Shown: positions 6,285-61,502 of the stretch, one piece after another | Layout: every line of letters starts with the position of its first letter | Position numbering within the stretch: the stretch's first letter is position 1 | NCBI GenBank assembly: GCA_964016885.1 | Contig: OZ024764.1 | Location: 1,426,001 to 1,490,000, forward strand | Source: Eledone cirrhosa | Taxonomy: Eukaryota | Length of the DNA stretch: 64,000 bases | Direction: 5' to 3' | Translations under genes and position numbers: made by a program | Notes under the pieces: model-generated | The model's input: the letters and a program-made list of their open reading frames with translations, nothing else | Database searches by the model: none | What the model was told of the DNA's origin: nothing

Positions 6285-7340
6285 GTAGAGGGTCGGACGC
6301 CATGCTTTGCGGCACAGTGTTACGGCCCTTTACGTTCTGAGTTCAAATCCCGCCGAGGTTAACTTTGCCTTTCCTCCTTACGGGGTCGATGAAATAAAGT
6401 ACCAGTAATACACTGGGGTTGATAAAATAAAGTACCGGTAATCTACTGGGGGCTGATAAAATAAAGTACCAGTAATAGACTGGGATTGATAAAATAAAGT
6501 ACCAGTAATAGACTGGGGTTGATAAAATAAAGTACCAGTAATCTACTGGGGCTGATAAAATAAAGTACCAGTAATGCATTGGGGTTGATAAAAAAAAGTA
6601 CCAGTAATAGACTGGGGTTGATAAAATAAAGTACCAGTAATAGACTGGGTTGATAAAATAAAGTACCGGTAATCTACTGGGGGCTGATAAAATAAAGTAC
6701 CAGTAATAGACTGGGTTGATAAAATAAAGTACCAGTAATAGACTGGGGTTGATAAAATAAAGTACCAGTAATGCATTGGGGTTGATAAAATAAAGTACCA
6801 GTAATCTACTGGGGTTGATAAAATAAAGTACCAGTAATGCATTGGGGTTGATAAAATAAAGTACCAGTAATCTACTGGGGTTGATAAAATAAAGTACCAG
6901 TAATGCACTGGGGTTGATAAAATAAAGTACCAGTAATGCATTGGGGATTTATAAAATAAAGTACCAGTAATCTACTGGGGTTGATAAAATAAAGTACCAG
7001 TAATGCATTGGGGTTGATAAAATAAAGTACCAGTAATGCATTGGGGATTTATAAAATAAAGTACCAGTAATACACTTGGGTTGATAAAATAAAATAAAGT
7101 ACCAGTAACGCATTGGGGTTGATAAAATAAAGTACCAGTAATGCATTGGGGTTGATAAAATAAAGTACCAGTAATGCATTGGGGTTGATAAAATAAAGTA
7201 CCAGTAAGGCACTGGGGTTGATAAAATAAAGTACCAGTAATGTACTGGGGTTGATAAAATAAAGTACCAGTAATACACTGGGGTCGATTTAATCGACTGT
7301 CCCTTCCATCAAAATTGCTGGCCTTGTGCCTAAATCGATT
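6285..7340 (+). mobile_element. tRNA-derived SINE (family A) with an internal 33-bp expansion
   Basis: B-box gagttcaaatcc; gaggttaactttgcctttc..ggggtcgat core shared with 7595-7712, 11450-11630 and 11655-11845. Confidence 0.75.
6388..7285 (+). repeat. 33-bp minisatellite (gataaaataaagtaccagtaatgcattggggtt), ~27 copies
   Basis: 11-aa periodicity in the ORF track; unit equals an internal SINE segment. Confidence 0.95.
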
Positions 7341-7342
7341 TT

Positions 7343-7490
7343 TGTGTAACCCCTCCCTGTCCCCATTTATTGTATTGTCCCCTACATGTCGACCCTTGTG
7401 GCCAATATAAACCAGTATTATTATTATAACCCCCACTGTCCCCTTCTATTGTCCCCTATATGTCAGCCCTTGTGGCCAATAAATGAAACC
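7343..7490 (+). mobile_element. Two tandem L1/Tx1 3'-UTR tips, each followed by (TTA)n
   Basis: ttgtcccct..cccttgtggccaata(t/a)a..aaacc resembles the 3' end of the element at ~20490-20543. Confidence 0.6.
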
Positions 7491-7499
7491 ATTATTATT

Positions 7500-7712
7500 A
7501 TTATAAAGTACCTGTAACATACTGGGGTTGATTTAATCAACTTTCCCCTTCCCTAAAATTGTTGTCCTTGTGTCTGAACCAGAAACCATTATTAAATCCC
7601 GCCGAGGTTAACTTTGCCTTTCATCATTACGGGGTCGATAAAATAAAGTACCAGTAATACACTGGGTTAATTGGTGGCCTTGTGCCAAAAGTAGAAACAG
7701 TTATTATTATTA
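7500..7712 (+). mobile_element. SINE family A fragments
   Basis: aaatcccgccgaggttaactttgcctttcatc..gtaccagtaa..ggccttgtgcc..gaaac + (tta)n tail. Confidence 0.7.
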
Positions 7713-9682: not shown

Positions 9683-9895
9683 TCTGCCGTCCTTCTTTAG
9701 AAGGGAAGGACAGGCAGTTTATATCTGCCTGGTGGCCGTGGCGAAAGACGTCGTGTGGTGGACACATTTGAAAGGGTTGAAGACGAACACTTTCCTCTTC
9801 AACGAAGCCCTGAATAACTTTTTCAGATTTCACTTGAAAAGGAAAATCAGGGAGGAGAGGGAAGTGCTGCCTTCCCAGCCAGTTTGTTGAAAGGT
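9683..9895 (+). pseudogene. Divergent L1/Tx1 ORF2 C-terminal fragment
   Basis: EGQAVYICLVAVAKDVVWWTHLKGL..FFRFHLKRKIREEREVL aligns with the end of ORF2 (EGEAVFLCVVAMAKEVVWWTRLKGL). Confidence 0.85.
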
Positions 9896-9914
9896 GAGTG
9901 TCTAAAAGTCTAAA

Positions 9915-13329: not shown

Positions 13330-14902
13330 AACATATACATTACTCTACATATACTATTGTATTTTCACAGTAAAGGCTTTACCTCACATATCTCACATAA
13401 CATTTACATTACTCTATATATACTATTGTATTGTCACAGTAAAGGCTTTACCTCACATAACATTTACACTACTCTATATATACTATTGTATTTTCACAGT
13501 AAAGGCTTTACCTCACATAATATCTCACATAACATTTACATTACTCTATATATACTATTTTATTTTCACAGTAAAGGCTTTACCTCACATATCTCACATA
13601 ACATTTACATTACTCTATATATACTATTGTATTTTCACAGTAAAGGCTTTACCTCACATAATACCTCACATAACATTTACAGTACTCTATATATACTATT
13701 GTATTTTCACAGTATAGGCTTTACCTCACATAATATCTCACATAACATTTACATTACTCTATATATACTATTGTATTTTCACAGTAAAAGCTTTACCTCA
13801 CATAATATCTCACATAACATTTATATTACTCTATATATACTATTGTATTTTCACAGTAAAGGCTTTACCTCACATAATATCTCACATAACATTTACATTA
13901 CTCTATATATACTATTGTATTTTCACAGTAAAAGCTTTACCTCACATAATATCTCACATAACATTTACATTACTCTATATATACTATTGTATTTTCACAG
14001 TAAAAGCTTTACCTCACATAATATCTCACGTAACATTTACATTACTCTATATATACTATTGTATTTTCACAGTAAAAGCTTTACCTCACATAATATCTCA
14101 CATAACATTTACATTACTCTATATATACTATTGTATTTTCACAGTAAAAGCTTTACCTCACATAATATCTCACGTAACATTTACATTACTCTATATATAC
14201 TATTGTATTTTCACAGTAAAAGCTTTACCTCACATAATATCTCACATAACATTTATATTACTCTATATATACTATTGTATTTTCACAGTAAAGGCTTTAC
14301 CTCACATAATACCTCACATAACATTTACGTTACTCTATATATACTATTGTATTTTCACAGTAAAAGCTTTACCTCACATAATATCTCACATAACATTTAC
14401 ATTACTCTATATATACTATTGTATTATCACAGTAAAGGCTTTACCTCACATAATATCTCACATAACATTTACATTACTCTATATATACTATTGTATTTTC
14501 ACAGTAAAAGCTTTACCTCACATAATATCTCACATAACATTTACATTACTCTATATATACTATTGTATTTTCACAGTAAAAGCTTTACCTCACATAATAT
14601 CTCACATAACATTTACACTACTCTATATATACTATTGTATTGTCACAGTAAAGGCTTTACCTCACATAATATCTCATATAACATTTACATTACTCTATAT
14701 ATATACTATTGTATTGTCACAGTAAAGGGTTTACCTCACATAATATCTCACATAACATTTACATTACTCTATATATACTATTGTATTTTCACAGTAAAGG
14801 CTTTACCACACATAATATCTCGCATAACATTTACATTACTCTATATATACTATTGTATTTTCACAGTAAAGGCTTTACCTCACATAATATCTCACATAAC
14901 AT
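13327..14902 (+). repeat. 72-bp satellite, left of the Tx1 insertion
   Basis: cacataatatctcacataacatttacattactctatatatactattgtattttcacagtaaaggctttacct; 24-aa periodicity in the ORF track. Confidence 0.97.
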
Positions 14903-15113
14903 CTCGTATACGAGAGACGTGTGTTGACGTGTGTGAACAAGCTCGGCTACCGAGTCGGATTTACTTACTCAAAAAGTGAGTTTTGATTAATTTTTTTATA
15001 CTGTAATATACGTTAACCCCTTGCCTTGGTCGTCAAACTTTGAGTTTATTTATTTTCGCCCCTTTTTGGGGCGAATTTTCCAGTTAAAAATTTATTACGG
15101 CAAACTAATAGAA

Positions 15114-16847
15114 ATGGACGGAATTTTCACATCTCATCCTAACGTGAAAGCCACGCCCCCTAAGAAAGGTGATACAGAGAAGCTAGAAGCACAAGGCTCT
15201 AAGTCTTCCCTCCTCACTTCTGCAAAAGAAACATGGAACACGGAATTAAAAGAAAAATTTGTAAAAATGGGTGAAATCCCAGAAAGTCACATAAACGCAG
15301 ACAAAAACAACAACGACAATAACAGCAATAGTCACAACACCAACCAAGGAAAAAATAACGATAACACCAAACAAAGCGAACCCACTACTGGTGCCTCCTT
15401 TGCACAGGCGGTCCGGAAAACACAAACCTGCAAGCAACTGGACATTACAACTCTGAGAGAAAAGATGAAGGAAGCGAAACAGTATGTAACTTTCAAAGAA
15501 GGAGGAGACTTCACAATCACCTCCCCACAAGAAATCAAAAGAGACACGACGCTAAGAACGATATCTTTCAGAACAATTTCCAACATAACAAGGAAACCAA
15601 CTCAATTATCCCAAAAAGAGATTGAGCTGGTCCTAAAAAAATGTGTGGAGTGATATATCGTTCATACAAAAAGGGCCACTCTATGGGAATATAACGGTCC
15701 TAATGAAGGATCAATTGACGGCCAGGAAATACTCTGTGGTGCCAATTGTTTCCAAGCTACATACATTTTTCCCCACATATTTAGGGAAAAGAACGCAGAA
15801 GATAAGGGTCTCCGGAATCCGGCCAAATGCATGCATTTCCTGGGTACTAACAGGATTTTTAGAAGACGAGGACGGAATCCTCTCAGTAGGAGAAGTCACC
15901 ACAGACGTTTTCGGCGGTTTGAGCGTGGAGGTTCTGGTCCAAATGAGACCAGAACGAATCGCTAGAATACCACAGAGGGTGTCCCTCGATGGAGAAACAT
16001 TTATATATATTTCAGCCGAGGGTAGGAGGCCCATATGTTACTACTGTTCAAGCAGGGGTCATCTAAGGGCTGCTTGTCCTCAATTGACAAAAAAAAGGCT
16101 CTTTTGCCTACACCCCACACACCACCACCGCCACCACCACCACCACCACCACCTCCACCACCACAACAACAAAAACAACAGGGAAAAATAACACAAGACA
16201 CGGCCCCACCCAAAACAACTCCCAAAACACACACAAATACAACAAAACCCCAAAATACACCACTACCCGACAGCACGGACGAGGACCCAGCGGAAACGGC
16301 ACCTAGTGACGAAGAGGGGGAACCCTTCCAACCTGTAAAAAGGAAAAAAAGAAAGCACCACTCGAACATAAACGAAACAAACACACAACCACCAACAAAA
16401 ACAAAACAAACAGAACAAACAAAATCCGCCCCACCCCAAAACATAACACATACAACAAAACGTAAGCACACACAAGAACAACAAACAAACACAACACAAA
16501 TAAAACAGTATACATACATTAACACAAATAACAAAGAACTAGTAAAAACAATACACAAAGACCCTTTGGTGGAAACTGAAGGGCAATTCTTTGCAAGCGC
16601 GGCTAACAAACCGCATTTAAAAATGATAAGACTCCCAATGGACACCTATGCAAAACTAAGAGAGAACTTTCCTGAGGACGTGGGGAAAACATGTACTCGA
16701 CCCTATAACCGCGTCCTCTTGAAACGTTTCCCCACCCACACCTCACCAAACACCCCCACTCCACCACAGAACAACACCCCACCAAACAACCCCTCCAATA
16801 CGCCCATGGATATTGTGCAACCTGCTCCTCAGGAGCCGAACAGGTAG
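15114..16847 (+). pseudogene. Tx1 ORF1 (gag-like zinc-knuckle protein) split by two frameshifts at A-runs
   Basis: SFAQAV motif, CYYCSSRGHLRAAC knuckle, Pro/Thr-rich tail with FQPVKRKKRK; shifts at A7 (15635-15641) and A8 (16089-16096). Confidence 0.8.
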
Positions 16848-16868
16848 GTCCTTCCTCTTTTAACCAAC

Positions 16869-19800
16869 ATGGCTGATATAAGAGTTGGGTGTCTGAATGT
16901 ACGCGGCCTGGGACTGTCTTGGAAACAAGGCAAACTTTTAAACGATCTCAGGTCGCATAGAATGGATGTAATGGCTATTTGCGAGTCCAGGATCAGCAGC
17001 GAGCACCAACTGGCGCCCCTCTTCGACGACTTTGAGATCTTCGCATCTCTCTGTCAACCGGGGGGTGGGGGTGGAGTTGTCGTTCTGCTGCGAAAACACC
17101 TGGGCCTCGCCATACAGAAGGTGCACCTGGACTCGGAGGGTCGACTGGTGGTTTTAGACGTCGGCAGTAGTGAAAGTGGAGCCCTTAGACTAATAGCTGT
17201 GTACGCCCCTTTTTGGGCAGCGCGGCCGGAATACTTCCAACGTCTGGAAACTTTTCTGGGAACGTCCCGCTCCTTGCTTTTAGTGGGGGACTGGAATGGT
17301 ATCCTGGATGCACGTTGGGACTATGTAGGGGCATGTGCCAATAGAGGGGGGTGTAAAAGCCTCAAAAGGTTAATCGGCCGATTTGACCTGGCCGATAGAT
17401 ATCGACTAGATTTTCCGACTGTACCACTATGGACGTGGACCAATCGCAGTGGAACATCTAGGTCGTACCTAGATAGGGTCCTAGTTAGAGAGAACGATAG
17501 GGACACATTTAGCTGTCCAAAAATGTTCATGGTTGACTATTCGGATCACAAGTTAGTGACCTGCATAGCCAACCTTGATAGAACCCATAGACAGGGACCC
17601 GGTTACTGGAAGCTGAACTTGTCCTTACCGAGAAGCAAAGCTTACAGTAAACGGATTAGCACGTTAGTTAAGCAGAATTTGACAGGGGCAATTGTCAACA
17701 ACAGGTGGTGGAGCTCTCTTAAGAGAGCAATTAGAATAGAATCGATAGGTTTTAGTCAGGAATTAGCAAGGGATAGGAACAAGACGGAAAGGGAATTAGT
17801 AGATAGAGTAGAAGAGGCGATTAGGAGTGGCAATGTAGCCGGCGTGCTGGCATCAAGAATGGCCTTAGACCAGTTCTTTGAGGTGAAGCATGAAGGCTGC
17901 GTTGTCAGGAGTAAAATACGTGCTCTGGGTAATGAGGGAGCCAAAGCTGTAAGCTGGGCCCGAGTGATAGAGGCAAAAAGTGGGAACAAGTCCACGATTC
18001 GGTCTTTGAAGGACCAGGATGGGCGTGTGATCCTTGAACCTGGGCAGATGTGTGCGGCCTTTCAGCGGCACTTTGCACGACTGTTCGAGAGGGGCGGCGC
18101 GCCGGGTGAGACTATGGATTTCAATCCATACCTCGACGGTCTGCCGCGCCTCTCGGACGCGGAGGCGAAGTCCTGCGAAAGGACGATTTCAGCTGCTGAG
18201 ATAGGGGCGGCGCTGAGCCAATGCGGCAAACGCAAATCCCCGGGTCTCGATGGTCTACCATACGAGCTATATGTAGCGATGCCGGACTTGTTCTCCGATA
18301 TCCTCGAAGCGGTCTACTGCAACTGGCAGCAGAACGGGAGAATTCCCAGTTCTGTGACCAAGGGCGTAGTTACGCTGGTGAGGAAGGATGAGAACAAGGG
18401 GGATGACATAAGTAACTTCAGGCCCATAACTCTGCTAAATACAGAGTTAAAGATTTTGGCCAAGGTGTTAGCGAAGAGGTTGGCGCTTGTCGTTGGAAAC
18501 CTGGTGGGAGAAGCGCAGACATGCGCAATCCCGTCCAGGTCCATTCACGACAATCTCCACCTTATGCGATACATCATAGAGAGGGTAGGGAATGAACCCG
18601 GCTTTGGTGGGGCCCTGATCAACTTGGATCAATCTAAAGCTTTCGATAGGGTTGACCATCGTTACCTGGATGCGGTGCTCGCGGCGGCAGGCTTCGGACC
18701 CGTTTTCAGGGGTTGGATTGCTGCGATGCACAGCAGCAACGTCTGCTCAAGGGTCAAGGTGAACGGCCACCTCTCGGAGCCGTTCCAAATCATGCGATCC
18801 ATCCGACAGGGATGCCCTCTCTCCTCCCTACTGTATGTGCTGGCTCTTGAGCCACTACTGCGGAAGTTGGAGCGGTTGCAGGGCATCCCTTTGGAACCGG
18901 GATTGCAGAAAGCGGCGTCGGCCTACGCCGATGACGTGACAGTAATGGTGTCGAAAACCTCGCAAATCGGTGAGATCGGCACCTTACTGGAGGAATATGA
19001 AAGGTTTACAGGAGCCAAGCTGAACCGGGACAAGTCCGTCGGTTTGCAACTCGGAACATGGAGAGGCAAACCGATGCCCTCCAACGACGTCGTCGGACGC
19101 TGGACGGAGGGCCCGGTGAAGCTGCTTGGGGTCTGGTTCGGACCAGACCTCCAGGTGGAGAAAAACTGGAACGAGGTAACGGCCAGGGTGTTTGCACTCA
19201 CCCAGAAGTGGGCCCAGTGCAAACTATCCCTGAAAGGTCGAGCGGAGGTGGCGAATACTTATATAGCATCCGTCATCTACTACCGCTTGACCGTCGTGCC
19301 TTGCCCAGTGAAAAGACTCGCCAAAATGGAGTGCGCGCTGTTCCAATTTCTTTGGAACAAGCGGACCCCTTTGGTGAGGAGATCCATCTGCTGTCAACAC
19401 CCTTCGAAAGGAGGGCTGGGGATGCCGTGGCTACAGATGCGTAAACACGCATTAAGGCTACGGCACCTCCAGGTATTCCTCACCGGTCAACCGGTGTGGG
19501 CCCCGTTTGTGAGGCGAGCCTTTCCCAGACTCGTCTCGCTCACCGAGCTGCAATCCTGGGTCAAGCAAAGACCGAGAAAAGTGGGCGACTGGCACATTGA
19601 ATGTGCCCAGGCGCTCACGGCCCTCTGGAAAGCGGACCCGGCAATCAGTGGAGACTCCACCTCGACATTCTATAGAGGGTTGGTACGCAGCAGGTGCGAC
19701 GATGCTCTCGGAGAAGCTCTAGGCATGGAGGAAGATGAACTGGCCAGTCTGTTCGGTAGGACGTTTGGCCCTGGACCGATGGACAACTTCCAAAAGTCCC

Positions 19801-20306
19801 TGGCTTGGCAGTGCTACCGAGGGGCTCTACCCGTTCGAGACAAGCTCCACAGGCATGGGAGCCTGGGTAGAGATCCTTTGAATAAGATCTGTCCGAGATG
19901 CGTGCATGATGACGAAACCGTTGCGCACGCATTCGTACACTGCCCAGGCATTGCTGACCTGTGGGGCTATGTGGAACGACTACTGTCGAGGGTGGGACCA
20001 ATCCGGTTGACCACCGAGTCCATTGTCACGATCAAACCGCCTCCCCCTTTCAAAAACGAAGGAGAGGCGGTTTTTCTCTGTGTGGTAGCCATGGCTAAAG
20101 AAGTTGTATGGTGGACGAGGCTGAAAGGGCTGAGGTCAGACACCTTTCTCTCCGGCCAACAACTGGTCCCCTTTTTCAAATACCATTTTAAAAGAAGGAT
20201 CAGAATGGAGAGAGAGGTGCTCTACCCCAGCAAGTTTTATGAAAGGTGGGTGAAAGTAGGGAGAATGGCCAGAGTGAATGGGTCTTCTCTCTATATCAGC
20301 CTGTAG
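16869..20306 (+). CDS. Tx1/L1 ORF2: AP endonuclease, reverse transcriptase and C-terminal zinc finger (1145 aa, uninterrupted)
   Basis: LNVRGL, VYAP, GDWN, SYLDR, SDH; KSPGLDGL, FRPITLLN, LDQSKAFDRV, RQGCPLS, YADD; CPRC..ETVAHAFVHC. Confidence 0.96.
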   Translation: MADIRVGCLNVRGLGLSWKQGKLLNDLRSHRMDVMAICESRISSEHQLAPLFDDFEIFASLCQPGGGGGVVVLLRKHLGLAIQKVHLDSEGRLVVLDVGSSESGALRLIAVYAPFWAARPEYFQRLETFLGTSRSLLLVGDWNGILDARWDYVGACANRGGCKSLKRLIGRFDLADRYRLDFPTVPLWTWTNRSGTSRSYLDRVLVRENDRDTFSCPKMFMVDYSDHKLVTCIANLDRTHRQGPGYWKLNLSLPRSKAYSKRISTLVKQNLTGAIVNNRWWSSLKRAIRIESIGFSQELARDRNKTERELVDRVEEAIRSGNVAGVLASRMALDQFFEVKHEGCVVRSKIRALGNEGAKAVSWARVIEAKSGNKSTIRSLKDQDGRVILEPGQMCAAFQRHFARLFERGGAPGETMDFNPYLDGLPRLSDAEAKSCERTISAAEIGAALSQCGKRKSPGLDGLPYELYVAMPDLFSDILEAVYCNWQQNGRIPSSVTKGVVTLVRKDENKGDDISNFRPITLLNTELKILAKVLAKRLALVVGNLVGEAQTCAIPSRSIHDNLHLMRYIIERVGNEPGFGGALINLDQSKAFDRVDHRYLDAVLAAAGFGPVFRGWIAAMHSSNVCSRVKVNGHLSEPFQIMRSIRQGCPLSSLLYVLALEPLLRKLERLQGIPLEPGLQKAASAYADDVTVMVSKTSQIGEIGTLLEEYERFTGAKLNRDKSVGLQLGTWRGKPMPSNDVVGRWTEGPVKLLGVWFGPDLQVEKNWNEVTARVFALTQKWAQCKLSLKGRAEVANTYIASVIYYRLTVVPCPVKRLAKMECALFQFLWNKRTPLVRRSICCQHPSKGGLGMPWLQMRKHALRLRHLQVFLTGQPVWAPFVRRAFPRLVSLTELQSWVKQRPRKVGDWHIECAQALTALWKADPAISGDSTSTFYRGLVRSRCDDALGEALGMEEDELASLFGRTFGPGPMDNFQKSLAWQCYRGALPVRDKLHRHGSLGRDPLNKICPRCVHDDETVAHAFVHCPGIADLWGYVERLLSRVGPIRLTTESIVTIKPPPPFKNEGEAVFLCVVAMAKEVVWWTRLKGLRSDTFLSGQQLVPFFKYHFKRRIRMEREVLYPSKFYERWVKVGRMARVNGSSLYISL

Positions 20307-20543
20307 GTGAAAGAAGAGGAAAAAGCGGAGACGAGGGAAGCACCTACTCTTTGTGCTCCTGAGGAGAAGGGTTACACATTTTTTCCGGGGTGTGTGCGAC
20401 CCATGTTAATGCCCCCTCCCTATTGAGGACTTCGTTTGTTGTTGTTATTTCATTGTTATATTTTTGTACTCGTTAATTATATGTAAACTTCCCCCCTTGT
20501 ATCTGTCCCTACCTTTTGTGCCCTAGTGGCAAATAAAGAAACC

Positions 20544-23387
20544 ACTCTATATATACTATTGTATTGTCACAGTAAAGGCTTTACCTCACATAATATCTCA
20601 CATAACATTTACATTACTCTATATATACTATTGTATTTTCACAGTAAAGTCTTTACCTCACATAATATCTCACATAGCATTTACATTACTCTATATATAC
20701 TATTGTATTGTCACAGTAAAGGCTTTACCTCACATAATATCTCGCATAACATTTACATTACTCTATATATACTATTGTATTGTCACAGTAAAGGCTTTAC
20801 CTCACATAATATCTCACATAACATTTACATTACTCTATATATATACTATTGTATTGTCACAGTATAGGCTTTACCTCACATAATATCTCATAACATTTAC
20901 ATTACTCTATATATACTATTGTATTGTCACAGTAAAGGGTTTACCTCACATAATATCTCGCATAACATTTACATTACTCTATATATACTATTGTATTGTC
21001 ACAGTAAAGGCTTTACCTCACATAATATCTCACATAACATTTACATTACTCTATATATATACTATTGTATTGTCACAGTATAGGCTTTACCTCACATAAT
21101 ATCTCACATAACATTTACATTACTCTATATACTATTGTATTGTCACAGTAAAGGCTTTACCTCACATAATATCTCGCATAACATTTACATTACTCTATAT
21201 ATTCTATTGTATTGTCACAGTAAAGGCTTTACCTCACATAATATCTCACATAACATTTACATTACTCTATATATACTATTGTATTTTCACAGTAAAGTCT
21301 TTACCTCACATAATACCTCACATAACATTTACATTACTCTATATATACTATTGTATTGTCACAGTATAGGCTTTACCTCACATAATATCTCACATAACAT
21401 TTACATTACTCTATATATACTATTGTATTGTCACAGTAAAGGCTTTACCTCACATAATATCTCGCATAACATTTACATTACTCTATATATATACTATTGT
21501 ATTGTCACAGTAAAGGCTTTACCTCACATAATATCTCACATAACATTTACATTACTCTATATATACTATTGTATTTTCACAGTAAAGTCTTTACCTCACA
21601 TAATATCTCACATAACATTTACATTACTCTATATACTATTGTATTGTCACAGTAAAGGCTTTACCTCACATAATACCTCACATAACATTTACATTACTCT
21701 ATACATACTATTGTATTGTCACAGTATAGGCTTTACCTCACATAATATCTCACATAACATTTACATTACTCTATATACTATTGTATTGTCACAGTAAAGG
21801 CTTTACCTCACATAATATCTCGCATAACATTTACATTACTCTATATATACTATTGTATTGTCACAGTAAAGGCTTTACCTCACATAATATCTCACATAAC
21901 ATTTACATTACTCTATATATACTATTGTATTTTCACAGTAAAGTCTTTACCTCACATAATACCTCACATAACATTTACATTACTCTATATATACTATTGT
22001 ATTGTCACAGTATAGGCTTTACCTCACATAATATCTCACATAACATTTACATTACTCTATATATACTATTGTATTGTCACAGTAAAGGCTTTACCTCACA
22101 TAATATCTCGCATAACATTTACATTACTCTATATATACTATTGTATTGTCACAGTAAAGGCTTTACCTCACATAATATCTCACATAACATTTACATTACT
22201 CTATATATATACTATTGTATTGTCACAGTATAGGCTTTACCTCACATAATATCTCATAACATTTACATTACTCTATATATACTATTGTATTTTCACAGTA
22301 GAGTCTTTACGTCACATAATACCTCACATAACATTTACATTACTCTATATATACTATTGTATTGTCACAGTAAAGGCTTTACCTCACATAATATCTCACA
22401 TAACATTTACATTACTCTATATATACTATTGTATTTTCACAGTAAAGTCTTTACCTCACATAATACCTCACATAACATTTACATAACTCTATATATACTA
22501 TTGTATTGTCACAGTATAGGCTTTACCTCACATAATATCTCACATAACATTTACATTACTCTATATATACTATTGTATTGTCACAGTATAGGCTTTACCT
22601 CACATAATATCTCATAACATTTACATTACTCTATATATACTATTGTATTTTCACAGTAAAGTCTTTACCTCACATAACACCTCACATAACATTTACATTA
22701 CTCTATATATACTATTGTATTGTCACAGTATAGGCTTTACCTCACATAATATCTCACATAACATTTACATTACTCTATATATACTATTGTATTGTCACAG
22801 TATAGGCTTTACCTCACATAATATCTCATAACATTTACATTACTCTATTTATACTATTGTATTGTCACAGTAAAGGCTTTACCTCACATAATATCTCACA
22901 TAACATTTACATTACTCTATATATACTATTGTATTGTCACAGTATAGGCTTTACCTCACATAATATCTCATAACATTTACATTACTCTATATATACTATT
23001 GTATTTTCACAGTAAAGGCTTTACCTCACATAATATCTCACATAACATTTACATTACTCTATATATACTATTGTATTGTCACAGTAAAGGCTTTACCTCA
23101 CATAATATCTCACATAACATTTACATTACTCTATATATACTATTGTATTGTCACAGTATAGGCTTTACCTCACATAATATCTCATAACATTTACATTACT
23201 CTATATATACTATTGTATTTTCACAGTAAGGGCTTTACCTCACATAATATTGAGTCTATGAGATTTTGATATTATTTATTTTGAGAACAATACCTTAACA
23301 TCAGTATGAGCGGTCAGTTACAGCCGGTTTGAACAGAAAAAGGTCATAGAATTCAGGCTGGATATTGGCAGTTTAAATGCTAAAGGG
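20544..23387 (+). repeat. 72-bp satellite (to ~23250) ending in a piggyBac-like MITE terminus
   Basis: Array followed by a ~140-bp unique segment ending taaatgctaaaggg|TTAA (23388-23391). Confidence 0.9.
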
Positions 23388-57039: not shown

Positions 57040-57725
<686 letters not shown>

Positions 57726-58005
57726 TGTGTCTTCTAGAACCAACAAAGCCATCCAGTCCCGTTCCACCATTAACCGCTATCTCTCTGCTCTTCTTTATAA
57801 AGAACTTTCCGGTACTTTTATTCACCACAAGACACTTATTGCAACAACTACAACAGTCTCCTATGGAAAAAGGTCACACTACCAACCAATACCTGTCTGT
57901 CTGTTTGTCCCTGCCAGCCTCTATGTCTGTGTTGCTGTTTGATGGCCTGCTTAGCTATCTATCTATCTATCTATCTATATATATATATATTACCTATTTA
58001 TCTAT

Positions 58006-58244
58006 CCTTCTCTGTATACCATCCTGTAGGTAAAGAAGTAAAGGAGAGGGGAGCACCTTCTCCATGTGCTCCCCGGGCAAAGGATTGCACACTTTTTCGG
58101 GGGTGTGTGCAACCCCCATCACGTCCCCTCCCTTTTGAGGTTATTTTCGATTATTTTCATGTTACACCCTTTTTACTCGATTATATGTAAACTCCCCCTT
58201 TGTATTTGTCCCTTCTTTTTATGCCTTTATGGTAAATAAAGAAA
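58006..58244 (+). mobile_element. Tx1 3'-end copy A
   Basis: Matches 20284-20541; followed by (TCTA)n. Confidence 0.85.
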
Positions 58245-58268
58245 TCTATCTATCTATCTATCTATCTA

Positions 58269-58428
58269 CGGGGTATTAAACAACCCATTTATGGCGCCTC
58301 CCCCCTATTGGGGATTTCGATTGTTGAAATTGTTTGTTTTTATATTTTTTACACGACTGTATGTAAAATCCCCGGCATGTCTTTGTATTGTCCCCTTTCT
58401 TGTTGCGCCCTTGTGGCTAATAAAGAAA
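58269..58428 (+). mobile_element. Tx1 3'-UTR copy B
   Basis: Matches 20387-20541; followed by (TCTA)n. Confidence 0.8.
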
Positions 58429-58473
58429 TCTATCTATCTATCTATCTATATATATTACCTATCTATCTATCTA

Positions 58474-58519
<46 letters not shown>

Positions 58520-58550
58520 CATCTATCTATCTATCTATCTATCTATCTAT

Positions 58551-59710
58551 ATCTGCTGCCAACACCCTTCTAACGGAGGGCTGGGGATGCCGTGGTTGAC
58601 GATGCGTAAACACGCGCTCAGGCTGCGGCATCTCTATGTATTCCTCACCGGACAACCGGTGTGGGCCCCATTCGTGAGGCGAGCCTTCCCACGACTTGTC
58701 TCGCTGACCGAGCTGCAGTCCTGGGTCAAGCAAAGACCGAGGAAAATGGGCGACTGGCACATCGAATGTGCTCAGGCGCTCACAGCCCTCTGGCAGGCGG
58801 ACCCGGCAATCAGTGGAGACTCCACTTCGTCATTCTATAGAGGGTTGATCCGCAGCAAGTGCGACGACGTGCTCGGTGAAACTCTAGGCGTAGAGGAAGA
58901 CGAACTGGCCAGTCTGTTCGGTAGGACCTTCCGCCCGGCGAACGATGGACAACTTCCAAAAGTCCCTGGCCTGGCAGTGCTACCGAGGAGCTCTACCAGT
59001 TCGAGACATGCTCTACAGACATGGGCGCCCGGGCAGAGACCCTGCAAAAAAGATCTGTCCGAGGTGCGTGCGAGACGAAGAAACCGTTGCGCACGCATTC
59101 ATACACTGCCCGAGCATCACGAGACCTGTGGGGCTATGTAGAACGACTATTGTCGCGGGTGGGACCAATCCGGTTGACCACCGAGTCCATTGTCATGATC
59201 AAACCGCCACCCTCCTTCAAAAAAAAAGGAGAGGCAGTTTTCCTCTGTGTGATAGCTATGGCGAAAGAGGTTGTATGGTGGACAAGGTTGAAAGGGCTGA
59301 GGTCAGACACCTTTCTCTCAGGCCAACAACTGATTCTTTTTTTCAAATACCACTTTGGAAGAAGAATCAGGATGGAGAGAGAGGTGCTGTACCCCAGCAA
59401 GTTTTATGAAAGGTGGGTGAATGTGGCGAGAATGGCCCGAGTGAATGGGCCTTCTCTCTATATCAGCCTGTAGGTTGAGGAAAAGGAGGAGGAGAGGAAA
59501 GGAGTACAAACACTTCGTACTCCTGGAGATGAGGGTTGCACATTTTTTCGGGGGTATGTGTTACCCATATGAACTGTCTCCCCCTATTGGGGAAAATTGA
59601 CTAATTTTTAAATTGCATTTGTGATAACAGTTTACATGTTTTTATTGTATGTAAACTCCCCCCTTTGTATTTGTCCCCTTCTTTTGTGCCCCTGTGGCTA
59701 ATAAAGAAAC
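58551..59710 (+). mobile_element. Tx1 5'-truncated copy C (frameshifted ORF2 C-terminus plus 3' UTR)
   Basis: GGLGMPWL..CPRC..SLYISL*, highly similar to 19386-20543. Confidence 0.93.
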
Positions 59711-59801
59711 ATATCTATCCATCTATATATCTATCTGTCTATCTATCTATCTATCTTTGTTTGTTTTTATTCATTGTTTTTATTAATTTATATATATATA
59801 T

Positions 59802-59882
<81 letters not shown>

Positions 59883-59888
59883 CATGTG

Positions 59889-59955
<67 letters not shown>

Positions 59956-60055
59956 TAATAAAAACAATGAATAAAAACAAACAAAGATAGATAGATAGAT
60001 AGTTAATATATTTATATAGATGGATAGATATGTTTCTTTATTAGCCACAGGGGCA

Positions 60056-60351
60056 CAATCGAAAGGTTGTGAGTTCAATCCTCAGATCGGGTGATGTGTT
60101 GTTTCCTTGAGCAAGAGACTTTATTTCACATTGCTCCAGTTTACTCAGCTGTAGAAATGAGATGATAGGGACTGGGGTCCCTATCATTCCACTGCAAAGT
60201 GGTCGTGGAGGTGCCACGGCAAAAAAGCACCCAGTACTCACTGTAAATGAGGTTGGTGTTAGGAAGGGCATCCAGCTGTAGTAGAAATCAAGCCAGAATC
60301 AGTTCCCGTCCCACCCTTGCAAGCAGGGAAAAGTGGACGTAAAATGAAATG

Positions 60352-60352
<1 letters not shown>
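60056..60352 (+). mobile_element. SINE family B
   Basis: Matches 9066-9352. Confidence 0.85.
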
Positions 60353-60388
<36 letters not shown>

Positions 60389-60646
60389 AACATACAAAGG
60401 TAGATAGAGAGATATAACTATATATAACTTTGTAGCACTGAGATATGAATTTCGATGTTAAAGTCGTACTCATACCCATTCAGGGTTCTTTATTAAATCC
60501 TTTATTTTCTTGTAAGACTCTGAAGAGCTCAACTTGGGCGTAACATTTGTAAGAGCTTCTTATAAATATATGTTAACGGCTTGCTTCTCTTTCATCTATT
60601 TTTTTGATTATATATATAACTATATATATATATGTATATAACTATC

Positions 60647-60986
60647 ATCATCATCATCATTTCATTTTACGTCCGCTTTTCCCTGCTTGCAAGGGTGGGA
60701 CGGGAACTGATTCTGGCTTGATTTCTACAGCTGGATACCCTTCCTAACACCAACCTCATTTACAGTGAGTGCTGGGTGCTTTTTTGCCGTGGAACCTACA
60801 CGACCACTTTGCAGTGGAATGATAAGGACCTCAGTCCCTATCATCTCATTTCTACAGCTGAGTAAACTGAAGCAATATGAAATAAAGTGTCTTGCTCACG
60901 GAAACAACACACCACCCGGTCTGAGAATTGAACTCACAACCTTTCGATTGCAAGGTCAATGCTCTAACCACTAAGCCATGTGCCTC
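60647..60986 (-). mobile_element. SINE family B, near full length
   Basis: Head ggaggcacatggcttagtggttagagc; RTE-type tail with (GAT)n. Confidence 0.85.
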
Positions 60987-61170: not shown

Positions 61171-61502
61171 ATATTCATTAGTTAAGCAAAACAAGACCAC
61201 AAACTTCACAAGGAAGACATTATTAAAAGATTGTCAACATATTTTAGTTTGATGTAAGGAATGTAGAGAATAATAATAATAATATGTTAATTATTTTCAA
61301 CTGAACCAGATCAATTATGATATATAGTCATCTGATCCATAAATATTATATGGAGTAGCGAAACAATTGTAAACGGACATTATTATTATTAATATTATTA
61401 TTATTATTCTCTACATTCCTTACATCAAACTAAAATATGTTGACAATCTTTTAATAATGTCTTCCTTGTGAAGTTTGTGGTCTTGTTTTGCTTAACTAAT
61501 GA

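Follow-up and report, generated by a model that had tools for sequence, protein, structure and literature searches.

APE-type LINEs that target microsatellites are known, and their mechanism is not well understood (PMC3812793, in the part available to us). The closest described systems are Kibi and Koshi, which occupy (TC)n and (TTC)n in teleosts, and the crocodilian Tx1 elements found in (TTCC)n and (TTTC)n (PMC4494074, PMC3812793). The targets listed for Tx1 and APE elements in the available portions of these two papers comprise the repeats TC, TTC, TTCC, TTTC, ACAY, AC and TAA together with snRNA genes, satellites and transposons, and (TCTA)n/(GATA)n is absent from these lists. The Xenopus element Tx1L sits in Tx1D, a non-autonomous piggyBac (PMC4494074, PMC6719617), and Tx1-Mar and the satellite-targeting Tx1 elements are related families with differing repeated targets, transposons and satellites included (PMC4494074). 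Thirteen recently active L1-Tx1 families have been described in O. vulgaris, and L1-Tx1 elements expanded in coleoids (PMC13282606, PMC8967140); no target analysis was found in the accessible parts of these two papers, the words 'target' and 'satellite' are absent from the main text of PMC13282606, and the accessible parts of PMC6136364, PMC8869645 and PMC5786205 hold nothing on TCTA. No LINE targeting TCTA or GATA repeats was found in the literature searched, and Repbase and older primary papers may record one.

Here we describe a large, recently active retrotransposon group whose copies lie in (TCTA)n/(GATA)n, always oriented the same way and flanked on either side by the duplicated target. 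Like Kibi, Koshi and the crocodilian Tx1, the families that we call A, B and C are APE-type non-LTR elements in a microsatellite; unlike Kibi and Koshi, they target (TCTA)n/(GATA)n, with the junction bases TATCTAT, and not (TC)n or (TTC)n. Diversity of this kind, a new microsatellite target, is expected for the clade.

The window, by which we mean the whole stretch of 64,000 nt that was analysed, corresponds to C25:1426001-1490000 of a 3.0 Gb genome. The motif AATAAAGAAA occurs in it at 58235, 58419 and 59700, marking three element 3' ends on one strand, each without poly(A) and each adjoined by TCTA-like DNA (Table 1). The sequence-only reading had described these as three 5'-truncated, diverged and co-oriented copies of a single family, and truncation, divergence and common orientation were all borne out on the plus strand; the copies do not, however, belong to one family but to three, with mutual identities of 68-82%. 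Two of the proposed starts (58006 and 58551) stood, but that of copy B, placed at 58269, moved to about 58261, where its first bases overlap the TCTA run. The lack of poly(A) and the TCTA-like sequence next to the ends also stood, except that this sequence does not follow copy C directly, a CA preceding the imperfect run. The repeat (tcta)n-tatatat-tacctat is indeed present at 57956-58005 and again at 58429-58475, but at about 45 nt it exceeds the 15-21 nt measured for target-site duplications, which is how it had been read; it could be the duplication of copy B, grown by slippage and split by copy A, or else an older repeat within the tract.

Table 1. Positions in the window of the three stacked fragments and of sister family S with its host element
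Feature	Position	Strand	Remarks
72-bp tandem repeat (host element) upstream of S	13452..14902	+	
29 nt of repeat unit before S	14874..14902	+	invariant in sampled copies
Sister S, full-length	14903..20547	+	
S ORF1	14991-16847	+	in three frames in this copy
S ORF2	16869-20306	+	open, 1145 aa; APE, RT, zf-RVT
72-bp repeat downstream of S, then host unique part and right inverted repeat	20544..23250	+	
Unoccupied host element	26080..27428	-	TTAA-flanked; 22-nt inverted repeats around 72-bp array
Imperfect (TCTA)n tract, 5' of copy A	57956..58005	+	
Copy A, final 239 nt of young family A plus putative terminal TC	58006..58246	+	58006-58244 99.6% identical to L151, an intact full-length element
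(TCTA)n spacer between A and B	58247..58260	+	
Copy B, 3' UTR piece of older family B	58261..58430	+	58261-58428 93.5% identical to L318, a full-length B
(TCTA)n/(TCTG)n tract between B and C	58431..58550	+	
Copy C, 1.16 kb, 5'-truncated, family C	58551..59711	+	ORF2 end (frameshifted, stop at 59473) and 3' UTR; 58551-59710 95.3% identical to L156, a C copy
Imperfect (TCTA)n tract, 3' of copy C	59712..59756	+	

Full-length elements of family A are 5.8 kb long, with an ORF1 of about 630 aa and an ORF2 of 1145 aa. In A and in a sister family, S, Pfam profiles identified in ORF2 an APE (PF03372), an RT (PF00078) and a zf-RVT domain (PF13966), the last slightly below cut-off in A; the APE catalytic domain and the RT are present in both families. 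A CX2CX4HX4C motif is visible in ORF1 of both, with PF00098 matches below the curated cut-off. Among solved retroelement proteins, the RT matched LINE-1 ORF2p best (E 1e-50), with R2 at 1e-20. The features that define membership of the L1 group (L1 and Tx1 clades), namely the domain order of ORF2 and an RT nearest to that of L1, were thus both found, and by their predicted proteins the elements classify as L1/Tx1-type LINE families. A named Tx1 sequence was not found among the homologues, cluster members or atlas clusters; the closest named homologue, from Argonauta hians, is 68% identical in the RT, which makes an octopod the likely host, and relatives at 40% identity occur in other organisms. 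Words of family C were also seen in runs X1-X20, labelled with 17 organisms, three rows standing at half or more; no RNA run was among those listed. Contigs and reads from four of the runs, compared with 57715-59790 of the window, gave no coverage of the unique flank, repeats being skipped.

Family A has been recently active and comprises intact, near-identical copies. The best 40 matches to copy A, all on C1, were identical to it over 155 nt, and ORF2 was open in 12 of 19 full-length A copies, which were 97.3-99.8% alike. Families B and C are older than A, the relatives of B being 86-98% identical, and D and E represent two further TCTA-flanked families. Positions 9706-9900 of the window hold a further piece of the ORF2 end, more distant in sequence and 72% identical to copy C.

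To examine the flanks, 90 loci were picked by their 3' end (30 each of A, B and C), from which 35 junctions that lay beyond the locus or the reference and three further loci (the window's two and one duplicate) were removed to leave 52 truncated copies. A 5' flank was scored by a TCTA 8-mer within 30 nt upstream of the junction, with TAGA representing the reverse orientation. The sequence-only reading had named (TCTA)n on the 5' side of truncated copies as the test of its proposal, and this was found at 32 of the 52 junctions, with TAGA at none. For full-length A elements the corresponding counts were 29/30 and 0/30; this set includes tandem and duplicated loci and shares members with a second one, of 28 long A loci for which both ends were read. 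In the latter, TCTA preceded 23/28 copies and all 20 of the full-length ones among them. All five long B copies and all six resolved E copies, the reference included, had 5' TCTA as well (12 E junctions were read, and six that were mis-chained or unresolved were left out). The background rates of these 8-mers were 0.17% for TCTA and 0.36% for TAGA in 199,171 30-mers from 20 hand-picked 10-kb stretches. The samples were the best-scoring matches, A came mostly from C1, and the sets overlap and contain tandem or duplicated loci, so that p-values overstate independence. One upstream flank was common to four A insertions (L116, L175, L245 and L251), which points to a dispersed repeat with a TCTA tract serving as a hot spot.

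Duplications gave the second line of evidence. Of 82 paired loci, 18 had a 3' flank in which 12 nt or more of the 5' flank recurred together with the imperfections peculiar to that locus; shuffled pairs gave a mean of 3.1 and a maximum of 9 such duplications, and none of 2000 shuffles reached 18. The duplications were 15-21 nt long in 16 of the 18 loci, and all 18 started at TAT, two bases after AAGAAA. The remaining 64 pairs lacked an informative duplication, many of them being pure repeat and incapable of showing one. At L096 the two bases after AAGAAA belong to the element (the target has TA, the insertion TC), and at L122, a B copy inserted off target, the duplication is 12 nt long and a TCTA run is absent. 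Since the site read from the junctions is TATMTAT, TA-interrupted tracts are also used. With 5' truncation and target-site duplication both present, these insertions carry the features by which target-primed insertion is recognised, and because locus-specific imperfections were copied on both sides, the repeat was in place before the insertions, so that (TCTA)n is a target and not merely a tail. The proposal that the family targets (TCTA)n/(GATA)n thus gained support from the 5' flanks and the duplications alike.

The same data bear on two other explanations of the flanks. If (TCTA)n were a tail encoded by the element, the 5' tracts would be the tails of older copies or the product of later slippage growth, and nested junctions, which follow the 3' end of another copy, did account for 15 of the 52 truncated and 14 of the 30 full-length cases; in addition, TCTA was present at the 3' end only in 14/52 truncated copies, and an element end was present in two of six background arrays. 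TCTA nevertheless persisted at non-nested junctions, both truncated (20/37) and full-length (15/16), the 3' flanks copied imperfections peculiar to the 5' flank of the same locus, and L122 as well as 30 of 30 ends of family S had no TCTA tail, so that an encoded tail is largely refuted and we regard it as very improbable. Slimmer still are the chances that the copies inserted at random and then survived where repeat-rich DNA tolerated them; simple repeats do abound in the genome and the window, but not one of the 52 and 30 junctions was in reverse orientation, and the bias was strongest in the youngest, near-identical copies. As for one-sided truncated copies, TCTA at the 5' end only was seen in 7/52, the presence of TCTA at one end was not associated with its presence at the other among the 52 (Fisher p 0.53), and it is possible that deletions after insertion, or a short tail from read-through, gave rise to such copies. 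Few of the 16 non-TCTA junctions were explained by inversion or displaced duplication, and 5' inversion as their cause was rejected, none having been found in the 16 cases checked.

The window also contains a full-length copy of family S, whose ORF2 is 78% identical to that of A, 81% to C and 75% to B; relative to A, the endonuclease is 75% and the RT 87% identical. At each end of S the best 40 matches were identical, and ORF2 was open in 17 of 29 full-length copies. All 30 sampled 3' ends and all 30 sampled 5' ends of S lay at one position of a 72-bp repeat, and no TCTA was found at any of them. The 5' junctions were uniform in 31 of 32 loci, and at the 3' junction the first 8 nt were invariant in 29/29, one variant among them, at position 6, being seen in a further set (L289). 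Most borders of the 72-bp arrays show the same host-element ends, which have TTAA flanks and inverted repeats beginning CCC; in the unoccupied copy the arms (26080-26101 and 27407-27428) are 22 nt long and 95% complementary. piggyBac elements have TTAA on either side and terminal inverted repeats that start with CCC, and we take the host of S to be a non-autonomous piggyBac-like MITE. When the end of S is read as AAGAAA-CCACTC, its cut would be ACTC^TATATATAC, the same TC^TATMTAT as in A, B and C.

The repeat unit adjoining S on the 5' side was unusual in its last 29 nt, which held no variants in 30 loci. The same positions of units -2 to -4 carried 130, and the first 43 positions of the adjoining unit itself varied normally (29 variants; Fisher p 5e-9). 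At L284 and L063, local variants were missing only within the 29 nt before S. It is likely that S carries this stretch as a leader, which we prefer over recognition that requires it. The target-derived leader could then pair with a neighbouring unit or with the same one, and the joining would yield a short deletion or a long duplication. At L274, where the host has a single unit, the duplication is at least 34 nt, and most S loci show none. That S generally duplicates 65 nt was rejected on the first 36 positions of adjacent units at 31 loci, where these units shared 16 variants and differed at 62; such a duplication fits some loci only (L274, L287).

R2 elements join their 5' ends by upstream target homology and have a restriction-like endonuclease and one ORF. 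S resembles R2 in that its cDNA end likely pairs with the upstream target and in its uniform 5' junctions, but the elements described here have an APE and two ORFs, and their RT matches R2 far more weakly than L1. Like Tx1L, S occupies a single fixed site in a non-autonomous element, one with TTAA flanks and inverted repeats that begin with CCC; unlike Tx1L, it has microsatellite-targeting sisters at 75-86% protein identity and a putative leader of 29 nt derived from the target, and it lacks a fixed short duplication. As with Tx1-Mar and the satellite-targeting Tx1 in the accessible part of PMC4494074, we found related families with different targets and tandem insertions around a duplication; unlike those, one predicted cut motif would serve both targets here, and both families have intact copies in one genome.

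Several S loci had further features. Head-to-tail runs of full-length S were seen at L157-L161 (C1 4.22-4.26 Mb and C10 40.72 Mb), the copies being separated by at least one 72-bp unit. At L052/L277 and L056/L281 the 72-bp unit after S breaks off into another repeat, the start of which looks Helitron-like to us from its motif. L286 is an S-ended copy in which the endonuclease part turns C-type, a possible template switch between families. At L249 (C1:105.12 Mb), a truncated A copy lies in a TCTATC variant of the left inverted repeat of the MITE, a few bases from the site used by S.

Across the genome, the (TCTA)n 3' junction pattern gave 8,793 matches against 27 for the reversed control, which adds a (GATA)n target at scale, with at least five families. 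A-type ends continued into TMTATMTAT in 1,347 of 1,540 cases, and S-type ends ran into the MITE site in 277 of 347; 20 exceptions to the latter were fetched, of which 19 were family E, one was B-like and none was S. The working rule for target specificity given in the accessible part of PMC4494074 is that one sequence type makes up more than 20% of flanks, and the corresponding values here were 62% of truncated 5' flanks, 87% of A 3' ends and 80% of S-type ends.

Taking the directly observed two-ORF anatomy, flanks, orientation, duplications and stacking together, we consider it probable, at roughly three chances in four, that the fixed orientation of the copies in (TCTA)n and their 15-21-nt duplications result from an APE endonuclease that introduces a nick at TC^TATMTAT in the (GATA)n strand, with priming at that point. 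Target-primed reverse transcription would start at the nick, on an RNA that would end just past AATAAAGAAA and two more bases (TC, TA or CA, depending on the family) and perhaps continues for a few bases that resemble the target and pair with the strand that was nicked, and the second-strand cut would fall about 19-21 nt downstream. Every insertion would leave TCTA on both flanks, so that later copies could land beside older ones and stacks would build; the order in the window would have been B, C and then A.

A variant of this account keeps the targeting real but has it set by RNA-DNA pairing alone, with loosely specific nicking and extension of paired primers only. The short TCTATC found at ends with non-TCTA neighbours (L102, L249) and the nearly identical hairpin loops of S and C, despite their different targets, speak for it, as does the observation, in the part of PMC1950540 available, that L1 integration is stricter than nicking, with pairing named as a possible cause. 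The same portion also reports, on the other side, that the Tx1L endonuclease in vitro nicks its target almost exclusively; moreover, pairing alone sits poorly with the identical phase of all 18 informative duplications and with the terminal two-base variation (TC, TA, CA), which leaves the site unmoved. We therefore judge pairing alone to be unlikely and retain specific nicking by the endonuclease as the preferred reading.

How S came to use a different site is a question on which we offer a tentative suggestion, less probable than not in our view: S may have switched from the microsatellite to the MITE site without retooling of its endonuclease, through capture of the target at both ends of its RNA, with pairing selecting the site. 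Under such a switch, A and S would both cut TC^TATMTAT, and S would have captured ACTC at the 3' end and the 29 nt at the 5' end of its RNA. In L1 and Tx1L, the choice of target has been linked to a hairpin loop (PMC1950540, in the portion seen). This loop reads RNHSGQ in A, ANRSGQ in E, ANLSGT or ANRSGS in B, TNISGT in C and TNRSGT in S, and because the loop of S is nearest to that of C, a TCTA user, the loop by itself probably does not account for the switch; other surfaces differ as well. Near-equal loops in S and C do not point to the endonuclease in the site choice of S. Maximum-likelihood trees, built from query-anchored rows taken partly from broken copies, nested S among the TCTA families with weak support (53/67/86 and 54/57/78), and an AU test did not reject S as sister to all TCTA families (p 0.25), so that TCTA need not have been the ancestral target.

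These two recently active sisters, about 78% identical and with many open ORF2 copies, have different targets, and the pair would likely make it possible to test how such elements change targets, and how much of target choice is due to the endonuclease and how much to RNA pairing. A practical implication is that GATA/TCTA marker loci in these animals will often have common flanks.

Other repeats lie near the stack and elsewhere in the window. Apparent fold-back inverted duplications on (TA)n/(ATT)n runs were seen at 59676-60066, 60060-60980 and 61195-61500, and in one of them the last 35 nt of copy C and its flank appear to be copied to 60032-60066 on the minus strand. A related 3' end at 7340-7500 is followed by (ATT)n and not TCTA, possibly a third target or a tail. 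This (ATT)n-type end is dispersed in the genome and occurs also at 3.31, 4.03 and 4.10 Mb of C25 (L216-L234), and matches to it came mostly from an amplified 79-bp tandem array.
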